In this document: positions 21,001-24,000 of the stretch, in pieces
How the letters are laid out: each line of letters begins with the position of its first letter
Position numbering within the stretch: the first letter of the stretch is position 1
IMG/VR virus record: IMGVR_UViG_2877962823_000010
Direction: 5' to 3' (one strand)
DNA from: a virus
Taxonomy: Duplodnaviria > Heunggongvirae > Uroviricota > Caudoviricetes
Length of the DNA stretch: 64,000 nucleotides
Program-made: the position numbers

Positions 21001-24000
21001 ACCGCCAGCCTTATGCATCGCATATGCACCTGCCGCACCCAGACCAGCGCCAACAAGAGAGGCTCGCCCCTGCTGTTTCGTAAACGCCGCCTGTGCATCC
21101 GATTTAGCTTTTGCCAGACTGCTGTCTGCCAGAGAGTTAAAACTCTGTAACGCATCCGCCTTCTGACCAGAACCGAGAGCAGCAACATCCTGTAGCCCGG
21201 CAACATACTTATCTGCCTGCGATACCTGCCCCCGTGTGGTTGTGTCAATCTGCCCGGTTACCTGGTCACTCTGGTTCGCATTCATTACCGCATTAAAACG
21301 ACCACTGGATGGGTCAACGCCGGACTGAGCAAGATTACCCGCAAGCTCCTTCCGTGCTTCGCCAAACTGTTTCTGATACCCCAGATTTGTGGTGCCAGCA
21401 ATATTGTCGTACTGCTGCTCACTGTTCAGGTCATCGACCTTTTCCATGAAGTTATCTTCAGCCGGGCGGAGGATATTTTTGTAATCCTGCCACCCTTTCC
21501 AGGCCACTTCTTCCTGTGCTATTTGCGCTGCTGTTGGTTTTACTTTGGTATCACCACCGCCTTTACTTCCACCCATAATGGCCCCCTGGATAACAAAAAA
21601 CCCTGCCGGAGCAGGGTCAGAATGTGAATTACAATGTTGGTTTAAACACAATGATGAAAACTGTAGCAGTCAGACCGCTATCCTGAACACCATGAAGCCA
21701 TCCTCATCATCCGGCATTCGCTCAAAGCCCAGTCGTTTTCCCAGCCGGATAAATCCCCGCCTTGCCGTATGGAACTCAGCCCAGCGTCCGCCAGCCAGAT
21801 GGGTTAATGTCTTCACCTCCGGCAGGTAACGCTCAACGCTGTTACTCCCCGTACACACGCCCAGCAACACCAGAACATAAGGGATACCATCAGCACTGAG
21901 CACAGAACGCAGCACCAAAAAGCCATCAGGTGCCTCAAAACAAAACGCCTGCTTTTTAAGGCAGGCGTCTTTAACTTCATTCATAAATTCAGGGTTGCGG
22001 GAATTTCTCACAACACGCTGCATATACCAGAGAATTTTATCGTTCATTCTCTCACCTGAAACGGGTGCCATATCGGCTGAACCTCAGCAACCAGTTGACG
22101 GGGACTCTCGTCCCCGTCGCGGTTTTCCTACTGCTTACACTGTAAGAACGCCGCAAACTCCGCTCCCCACAAATTCAGCCGGAACTCACACAGTGAACCG
22201 TGCAACATCCAGATGGTGAAGATAACCGTCATGCAAATTGTGACGGTGATAAGCGATTTTTGCGACATAGCGCTTGACTCCTTTTACAGAGAGGCGCTAA
22301 CCTTCTACTTGCTTAAGGTACGAAGTGTTAGGGCCTCGGGTTAACGTTAAGTTGACTCGGGGCCTTTCCACATCAGGCCTTCAGGTTCACCCTCCAGCCA
22401 TCAGCCGAAAGGCACCCACGCATAATTTACGGTTTTTGCCCTGTACGGGCAATAAAAAACCCGCCATCACAGCGGGTAGTAAACGGTTACCGGATACAGG
22501 TCAGAATTTCAGGCCAATGCCAGCAGTAACGCCACTCGTGCGCCAGTCGCCAGAGCCGGAACCTTCGTAAGCCACATCCAGTGTAACACTCTCATTCAGG
22601 TTAAACTGTGCACCTGCAGCCCACGCAAGGGAGGTTTTTTTCGTGCTGTTGCTTTCAGAAAATCCGCCACTACTGTTAATATTGTCCTTAATTTTCAGGT
22701 CAGCGCTAACTTTAGCAACGCCCATCCCTGCCATCGCATATAAACTCATGTACTGATTAACCCGCCATGAAGGCCCCGCTAACAGACTCCAGTAATTCGC
22801 CCTGATATCCGTTCTGGCAGAAGCTGCCGGATTCTTAATCTTCCTGGTATGATCGGCTGACTGCACATCAATAAATGTCTGTGAGTTAGTGAGAGAACGC
22901 GTCCATGTAAAAGAGGTGATAACGCCAAAATCATCCGTTATCTCGTAGCGATACCTGATATTAATGCCCTGTGGATTTTTATCCTTGCCTTCATATCCAC
23001 TGACCCGACCATCTGTATATTCGCCCAATGAAGAAAAGTAGTTTCTGTTGACGAAATGACTGAAAGTCTCCCTGTTATGAGCAGTCGCATCCTTTACAAA
23101 ATCCTTCAGTCCCGGAAACTGAAAGTGCGCATACCCCAGAGAAATTGTATGCTCTCCTTCTGCTGCATGTGCAGATAAATTTACACAGGCAATCCCGGAG
23201 ATTGCACACACAACCAGTGTTGCTATACTCTTCATTTAAGATATCCTGTATTCAGATAACACGCTAAACTTTTTAATAATACATCTTTTTAGACATTTTA
23301 AATGAATATTAAAGACTCGCTTCAACTAATCATATACTGATGTATTAATAACCAGGACCTTATCTATATACGGCTTTCGAATATCCCATGTTGCACCACC
23401 GGAATAATGCTCACAGGAATATATTTTATTTCCTGTAGCACCAGTGGATGTGGTATAAATCGGTCGATCATAAGGAGTTCTTTTCCAGTTATAATACCCG
23501 ACCAGTGCAGGCATGATTGCGCATGGATATCCAAGGTCCTTTTCAAATTTGATATCAACAGGTATTAACTTCGCGTCAAGCAGCATCATTTCGCCATGAT
23601 AAATCATCTCACCGTCCGGGTTATACATGGCGATACCATACTCAGAAGGTGGAGTAACCATATTCGCGAAAGCATAAACCGTCGTAACACCAGGGTTCGT
23701 TCCCCTGACAATTACATGAAGCCTTAGTGCATGATATCCATCAATCTGTTCATGCGTGTACATGACATCGGCCTTCTTCTCTGTTCTGATAAAGAAAAAA
23801 CAACTTTTGCCTGACGGGATTGATGTTTTAAAAAAAGACTTTTCAGTCGCCGGTATGGTGCCTTTGTTGATCAGACACTGCGGCGTAAAACCTGGACTTA
23901 TCCATACGCTGCCATCCGGCTTCATAATGCTCAAACCGTACATAACACTTATCCCCAGAATGTATAAATATAAGATCCCATACCCTGCTCAAGATTCGAC

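Follow-up and report, generated by a model that had tools for sequence, protein, structure and literature searches.

In the hok/mok/sok system of plasmid R1, translation of the toxin gene hok needs translation of the leader reading frame mok, the antisense RNA Sok targets the start region of mok, and a 3' hairpin stabilises the truncated, processed hok mRNA (PMC9841398). The hokW-sokW locus of prophage Sp5 is an experimentally established type I toxin-antitoxin (TA) system with a toxin of 51 amino acids (aa) (Takada et al. 2021, PMC8621323): its antisense RNA vanishes and its toxin appears after RecA-dependent prophage induction, and, relative to a deletion mutant, growth arrest comes about 40 min earlier and the phage yield is about twofold higher (PMC8621323). 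A recent census catalogues 1264 Hok peptides, finds hok enriched in prophages, and reports two copies in 3.5% of the phages that carry it (Escalera-Maurer et al., bioRxiv preprint 10.1101/2025.08.07.668861). The locus studied here lies in a stretch of 64,000 nucleotides from a virus of the Caudoviricetes, IMG/VR record IMGVR_UViG_2877962823_000010, which we call the window. Its core is an open reading frame (ORF) of 46 codons on the minus strand, at positions 22128..22268, with an ATG start and a TAG stop, whose 46-aa product is MSQKSLITVTICMTVIFTIWMLHGSLCEFRLNLWGAEFAAFLQCKQ; the position and the length are those given in the first-pass annotation of this DNA, and the list of ORFs confirms both. 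We propose, with a probability of roughly 0.8, that this ORF belongs to a self-contained type I TA cassette of the hok/sok type, a moron acquired between the terminator of the gene lom and the gene L0129, and the second such cassette of the phage, beside hokW-sokW.

The window is a phage of the 933W/Sp5 type carrying Shiga toxin 2 (Stx2): the 501 bases around 22128-22268 are 100% identical to those of 933W, of VT2-Sakai (Sp5) and of many other Stx phages. The identification of the 46-codon ORF with the published hokW is rejected: the primers of PMC8621323 encode MKQQKAM...DYESEK, which matches the window at position 9313 on the plus strand. The hokW-sokW locus occupies positions ~9144-9468 (+), with a match to the Rfam family RF01794 at 9144-9318 (113.5 bits, for a gathering score of 59) and the 51-aa HokW coding sequence at 9313-9468; upstream of the latter, an in-frame ATG (MLNTCRLASYVPKGKEKQA-MKQQ...) could be mokW. 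The phage therefore has two hok loci, of which 22128-22268 is the second, and the first-pass annotation missed the published hokW-sokW as a separate locus.

The leaders of the two loci have much in common: a 5' GGGUGC tac motif, a GAGG box, the sequence GGUUAGC, which is the complement of the antisense -10 box, and an AAGGAG placed 9 nucleotides (nt) before the ATG. The loci differ in their peptides, which have 51 and 46 aa and are 37% identical over 35 residues; in their RF01794 scores, since hokW exceeds the gathering score with 113.5 bits and the second locus, with 35.6, does not; and in the in-frame upstream ATG, present in hokW and absent from the second locus. The antisense target sequences also differ between the loci, and cross-regulation is therefore unlikely.

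The 46-codon ORF is a real gene of the Hok/Gef family, under purifying selection. Searched with hidden Markov models (HMMs) of Hok families, as had been suggested, the peptide scores above the gathering score of Pfam HOK_GEF (PF01848), with 33.2 bits against 22 and E=4e-8, its residues 8-44 falling on positions 6-42 of the 42 of the profile; it also matches PHROG 251, with E=2.8e-24. A search of 5.8 billion proteins yields 56 relatives, from Escherichia, Shigella and Salmonella, a majority of them already named 'Hok/Gef family protein', and those that are full-length are nearly all 46 aa long. Across 27 members of the subfamily, no variation is seen at M1, Q3, K4, M21, C27 or the C-terminal A-x-FLQCK, while L26 and E28, the neighbours of C27 in the LCE motif, are kept in at least 90%; at the scale of the whole family, L30, C31 and E32 belong to the seven conserved Hok/Gef positions. 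The N-terminal part contains a hydrophobic helix, whose best window of 17 residues, 6-22, has a mean Kyte-Doolittle value of 2.32. Compared with 11 homologues, the ORF has a ratio of nonsynonymous to synonymous substitution rates (dN/dS) of 0.24-0.58, and in its C-terminal half the nonsynonymous and synonymous differences, pN and pS, are 0.06-0.17 and 0.24-0.64 respectively.

These data also settle whether the 46 codons could be open by chance, the real genes being the ORFs of the plus strand at 21995-22219 or 22325-22570. Older GenBank records do annotate plus-strand ORFs, for example ORF-15c, and 22325-22570 matches PHROG 24458. The chance explanation runs against the Hok HMM matches, the conserved length and a dN/dS below 1; moreover, PHROG 24458 has no known function, and 21995-22219 (74 aa, TTG start), which indeed overlaps the toxin ORF as initially reported, has no family match in the PHROG search. 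For practical purposes, it is refuted.

Within the family, the best NCBIfam model is HokA (NF007290, E=9e-10), whose 38.4 bits fall well short of the 89 set for an equivalog; with NF007279, the model of the Hok subfamily, the score is 22.7 bits, under the cut-off of 73. Like HokA of E. coli K-12, the peptide has an SLCE motif and, at its C terminus, AAFLxCK with a second cysteine; the census mentioned above assigns HokA to cluster 93 and the peptide of the window to cluster 72. The peptide is thus a member of the Hok family and not an orthologue of HokA, which is merely its nearest model, and the initial label 'HokA-like' must be read in that restricted sense. PADLOC has no model that matches either Hok peptide, the 46-aa one or HokW, or L0129.

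The census lists an identical peptide as entry 72_1589, in a cluster of 'high abundance', and its authors cloned it as LRP157 (10.1101/2025.08.07.668861); a few synonymous differences separate the cloned DNA from that of the window. Of the 45 constructs of that study, 42 are toxic on arabinose induction, the non-toxic ones being 19_179, 60_1482 and 69_1540 only (10.1101/2025.08.07.668861). Since 72_1589 is not among these three, it is counted among the toxic homologues and reported to halt E. coli growth when induced (10.1101/2025.08.07.668861), so that the toxicity proposed at first as a check on the toxin is reported, in a preprint, for the same peptide. The census covers the coding sequence, and states that Mok, Sok and the mRNA ends were left unanalysed (10.1101/2025.08.07.668861); it says nothing on this locus in 933W/Sp5.

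The locus is, in this sense, an already known and catalogued kind of prophage cargo. It had been called unannotatable at first, which describes the GenBank records of 933W and Stx2-phage-I, where the ORF is missing, and fails for more recent ones: RefSeq genomes of E. coli name it 'Hok/Gef family protein', and a pharokka-annotated phage, 'MokW-like host killing'. The gain in annotation is therefore small, given that current pipelines already call the gene, although the reference 933W and the early Stx-phage records of GenBank are still without it. In the literature on 933W together with hok and lom, and on hok/mok in P2-like prophages, we found no description of this locus, and a paper on prophage Pas small RNAs cites the hokW paper only. 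The sole points for which we found no published description are the lack of mok throughout the subfamily and the presence of two hok cassettes in 933W/Sp5.

We now turn to the RNA. On the hok sense strand, RF01794 (sok / hok leader) matches positions 22417-22255 over the full length of the model, in the same orientation as on the validated hokW locus, with 35.6 bits and E=9e-6. Position 1 of the model falls on G22417, which is therefore the probable 5' end of the mRNA. A hok promoter is predicted just upstream, at 22424..22452 (-), with a -35 box TTGCCC, a spacer of 17 nt and a -10 box TAAATT, at 6 nt from the +1 G at 22417; its -10 pattern TAnAnT is kept in the alignment of homologues. Copies in other prophages are homologous at the DNA level only as far as 22437 on one side and 22063 on the other, the edges of the hok unit. 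Taken together, the Rfam 5' end, these edges and the fold predict a full-length hok-type mRNA of about 355 nt, at 22063..22417 (-).

This RNA is predicted to fold tightly: the minimum free energy of 22417-22060 is -155.4 kcal/mol, against -117.7 +/- 5.8 for shuffled sequences (z=-6.48), and its 5' end pairs with its 3' end. We also aligned 14 homologous units, from E. coli, E. albertii, Salmonella, Citrobacter and one contig labelled Vagococcus, probably a contamination. In their consensus fold, 96.3% of the cells are paired, against about 42% when the partners are slid; 14 pairs show double changes, and none of 500 shuffles attains the observed covariation score. The closure of the molecule is formed by the tac element at 22401..22417 (-), 5' GGGUGCC..UCGGCUGA, and the fbi element at 22063..22080 (-), UCAGCCGA..GGCACCC, in which columns 1-12 of the alignment pair with columns 363-375; this helix has ten consensus pairs, three of them fully compensated (CG/UA, GC/CG, AU/GC) in 6-7 of the 14 sequences. 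Further inside, a long-range helix spanning 22150..22266 (-) joins the start-codon region, 22253-22266, to codons 36-40, 22150-22163: this is helix 8 of the consensus, with 13 pairs and 99.5% of cells paired over the 14 sequences. The Shine-Dalgarno sequence AAGGAG is at 22278..22283 (-), 9 nt before the hok ATG.

The prediction changes when the last ~33 nt are removed in silico. In the fold of positions 1-325, a tac stem, 1-11 with 50-59, replaces the closure of the ends: the alternative partner of tac is a ucb-like box at 22359..22369 (-), GGAAAGGCCCC, and the resulting outer stem is the same as in the Rfam model. The predicted Sok-target hairpin, at 22301..22326 (-), forms only in this truncated fold; it is also found in the Rfam consensus, and its loop CCUUAAGCA, at 22310-22318, carries a YUNR motif (CUUA) and has an unpaired probability of about 1.0. 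For the GGAG of the Shine-Dalgarno sequence, the unpaired probability rises from at most 0.04 in the full-length fold to 0.14-0.55 after truncation. A GC-rich 3' hairpin at 22097..22118 (-), helix 17, in which 4 pairs show compensatory changes, is likely, by analogy, the 3' end of the processed, active mRNA. On the plus strand, this GC hairpin downstream of the hok stop codon (22096-22119) is followed by a T-run (CGGTTTTCCT), and could also end plus-strand transcription that enters the cassette.

In silico, the change of fold reproduces the classical switch of hok mRNA from its full-length to its truncated form (PMC9841398). The likeness to R1 extends to the Hok/Gef peptide, the tac/fbi closure and the alternative tac/ucb stem, the 3' stabilising hairpin, and a predicted antisense promoter that overlaps, on the opposite strand, the Shine-Dalgarno region of hok (elements as defined in PMC9841398). 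The differences are a peptide of 46 aa instead of 52, a prophage instead of a plasmid, and the lack of a mok leader ORF, to which we return below.

The antisense promoter is predicted at 22274..22303 (+), with a -35 box TTGACT at 22274-22279, a spacer of 18 nt and a -10 box TAACCT at 22298-22303. Its location corresponds to that of the sok promoter in R1, and the hokW locus aligns with it there. The element is kept in all 14 homologues, with -35 boxes TTGCTC, TTGCCC, TTGACT or TTTACT, spacers of 17-18 nt and -10 boxes TAACCT or TATCCT, where the hok strand has no coding sequence. We predict from these signals a Sok-like RNA of ~63 nt, at about 22307..22369 (+), that would end in a terminator-like hairpin at 22330-22366 (+). 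The hairpin has 16 base pairs (bp), followed by U residues, and three of the pairs are G-U, which the minus strand would read as C-A: the antisense strand folds with -34.5 kcal/mol and the sense strand with -17.0. In every one of the 14 homologues the antisense hairpin is the better one, by 7-17 kcal/mol, and its upper stem co-varies. Such strand-asymmetric G-U pairs, present in all homologues, point to an RNA made from the plus strand. The first-pass annotation had suggested that the structured upstream sequence 22290-22400 could hold 'mok/sok-like elements'; the sok half of this suggestion stands, with a predicted promoter and a hairpin, and the mok half does not, for want of a reading frame.

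The same observations bear on the possibility that the ORF encodes a small membrane protein carried on a lom-to-L0129 transcript, an accessory of lysis or of the membrane that would escape antisense control, its conserved upstream elements serving mRNA stability only. The genes lom, hok and L0129 do share one orientation, no strong terminator follows the unit, and the phage's other Hok toxin, HokW, takes part in lysis. However, the lom terminator, a terminator-like hairpin with a T-run at 22459..22477 (-), lies directly upstream and forms the upstream boundary of the hok module; the cassette occurs alone elsewhere, for example after ogr, adjoining host genes of the opposite strand; and the much greater stability of the antisense version of the hairpin, seen in all homologues, is at odds with the absence of an antisense RNA. 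We regard a shared transcript of this kind as quite improbable.

The distribution of the cassette is that of a traveller. When a query of 501 bases spanning the hok unit is compared with 5426 complete E. coli genomes, some part of it matches in 1674, and a match covers at least 80% of it in 416. Relatives occur in Escherichia, Shigella, Salmonella and Citrobacter. Most of them follow ogr where P2-like prophages end on the right, adjoining host genes such as serS or pheT/ihfA; others stand beside lambdoid tail genes, including one between gpJ and the tail-fibre gene, where lom would be; and one, in Salmonella diarizonae, adjoins a gene for an Ibs toxin. Placements as diverse as the P2-like, lambdoid and Ibs-side ones form the pattern of a mobile moron cassette. 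In the last case, the neighbour (L012:3381-3440) encodes a 19-aa type I toxin of the Ibs family, ~240 bp downstream of the hok homologue and on the other strand, so that two type I toxin loci are found side by side. A scan of genome contigs returned only 7 loci, three of them in implausible hosts: copies with 76-100% aa identity lie on contigs labelled Xanthomonas pisi (857 bp), a Planococcaceae metagenome-assembled genome and Vagococcus sp. (L013, L014, L016), and are most likely assembly contamination.

Several points weigh against reading the locus as a functional hok/sok cassette. The RF01794 score, 35.6 bits, is under the gathering score of 59, and several pairs of the model are not kept, so that the check by hok/sok covariance model, proposed at the outset, gives a match that is full-length and weak. 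A consensus promoter scan finds no site at its threshold, and both predicted promoters, of hok and of the Sok-type RNA, are under it; that of hok consequently rests on position and conservation. The shuffle control on the covariation of the consensus fold can be inflated by the relatedness of the sequences. There is no clear intrinsic terminator 3' of fbi in the window, and transcription may continue into L0129. In the toxicity assay, promoter and Shine-Dalgarno sequence were both foreign, and the source is a preprint (10.1101/2025.08.07.668861). Finally, in the window and in 11 of the 13 other homologues, no ATG, GTG or TTG in any frame opens a reading frame into the hok start region.

The last of these is the most consequential. 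Each of the three frames runs into a stop codon no more than 45 nt from the hok ATG; a GAGG box is conserved at the position of the old mok Shine-Dalgarno sequence (22334-22337, minus strand), with no start codon after it. We also considered a mok read as an in-frame N-terminal extension, in the style of hokW, or from non-canonical starts, and rejected it: nothing is conserved in the three frames. A short upstream ORF begins with an ATG at mRNA position 45, and only in the homologue of E. albertii (L017) does its frame stay open, over 45-281, through the whole leader and most of hok; there it may be a mok-like frame peculiar to that lineage, or an ORF open by chance.

Without mok, the locus might be a relic, a silenced or decaying hok whose peptide is toxic when forced, but whose native mRNA is never translated, so that it sits idle in the phage. 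In E. coli K-12, several of the hok loci on the chromosome are considered inactive, and the leader match to Rfam is, as we saw, sub-threshold; the requirement for mok translation in R1 (PMC9841398) points the same way. A relic, on the other hand, would hardly show purifying selection on its peptide in Escherichia, Salmonella and Citrobacter alike, maintain its RNA helices through compensatory changes, conserve an antisense promoter and hairpin in non-coding sequence, or move between unrelated prophage types with its boundaries intact. Furthermore, the lack of mok is common to the whole subfamily, and is no private lesion of this phage. On balance we find the relic unlikely, if somewhat less so than the shared transcript, and retain the self-contained TA cassette. 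The core of the first-pass annotation, a type I toxin of the Hok family that has a transcription unit of its own and antisense-control elements upstream, is supported by the HMM matches, the covarying fold, the predicted antisense promoter and hairpin, and the reported toxicity.

A more tentative proposal, with the odds slightly against it, is that the Hok subfamily of cluster 72, this locus included, is a naturally mok-independent variant of hok/sok, in which Hok is translated from its own Shine-Dalgarno sequence, without a leader ORF. With no mok ORF, the predicted antisense RNA cannot block mok translation, and must act through cleavage or refolding of the mRNA. If mok-independence is true, silencing would be purely of this kind, exerted from ~27 nt upstream of the Shine-Dalgarno sequence, and the GAGG box at 22334-22337 would be kept only as a part of the RNA switch and of the Sok terminator.

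A possible course of events can be outlined from R1 hok/sok and hokW-sokW. The mRNA would be made constitutively, as a closed, full-length form that cannot be translated. Slow 3' trimming, up to the GC hairpin, would take off fbi; tac would then pair again, with ucb, the target hairpin would form, and the Shine-Dalgarno sequence would loosen. The short-lived antisense RNA of ~63 nt would bind the exposed loop, and the duplex would be destroyed, probably by RNase III; of the slow 3' processing, the duplex cleavage by RNase III and the instability of the antitoxin RNA, a part has been shown for hokW-sokW (PMC8621323). Should antisense synthesis stop, through loss of the prophage, induction, or shut-off of the host by another phage, the peptide would be made, insert in the inner membrane, and depolarise or lyse the cell. 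As to the role of the system, our first guess, again by analogy, would rank help to lysis and release on induction, as for HokW, before prophage addiction, and the latter before exclusion of other phages.

The neighbourhood of the cassette agrees largely with its initial description. The upstream neighbour, lom, at 22501-23235, matches Pfam Ail_Lom with 113 bits, and, as had been noted for this Lom-like gene, has a terminator of its own, the hairpin and T-run at 22477-22459. Downstream, the ORF list gives L0129 133 aa, from the ATG at 22071, which falls within the fbi element; an alternative ATG at 22047 has GGTGAGAG before it. The match of L0129 to PHROG 610 begins at residue 9, the first 8 codons falling outside the profile, and the ATG at 22047 is therefore probably the likelier start; the resulting 125 aa are close to the 126 first announced. 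Neither Pfam nor NCBIfam returns anything for L0129. On the plus strand, the ORF at 22325-22570 (81 aa, GTG start), which is ORF-15c of the old Stx2 phage record, is antisense to the 3' end of lom, to the lom terminator and to the hok leader, and, on its own strand, overlaps the Sok-like RNA predicted above; its match to PHROG 24458, a family of unknown function, has E=5.5e-58. It is probably an over-annotated ORF that has spread among near-identical Stx phages.

Other RNA elements were found elsewhere in the window. Matches to the ALIL pseudoknot at 26328-26444 (+) and 44721-44837 (+) score 121.5 bits each, and these equal scores suggest that the prophage contains an IS3-family insertion sequence twice, with 18.4 kb between the copies. 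At 46091-46289 (-), matches to C4 antisense RNA, a1/b1 targets and isrK are clustered, as in the antirepressor immunity module of the P1/P7 type. A lambda cIII thermoregulator element lies at 55498-55556 (+), with 88.5 bits, and a match to sRNA-Xcc1 at 6434-6522 (+), with 69.1 bits.

The presence of two different hok cassettes in Stx2 phages of the 933W/Sp5 type has a practical consequence. The phenotypes of the hokW-sokW deletion in Sp5 were measured with the second toxin present, and both loci may therefore give more to the timing of lysis and to the release of phage and Stx than has been reported: single knockouts may understate the effect of Hok on lysis timing, on yield and on the release of Shiga toxin. 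As for the subfamily, its lack of mok would offer a ready natural test of the extent to which the regulation of hok depends on mok, which is essential in the textbook model of R1.

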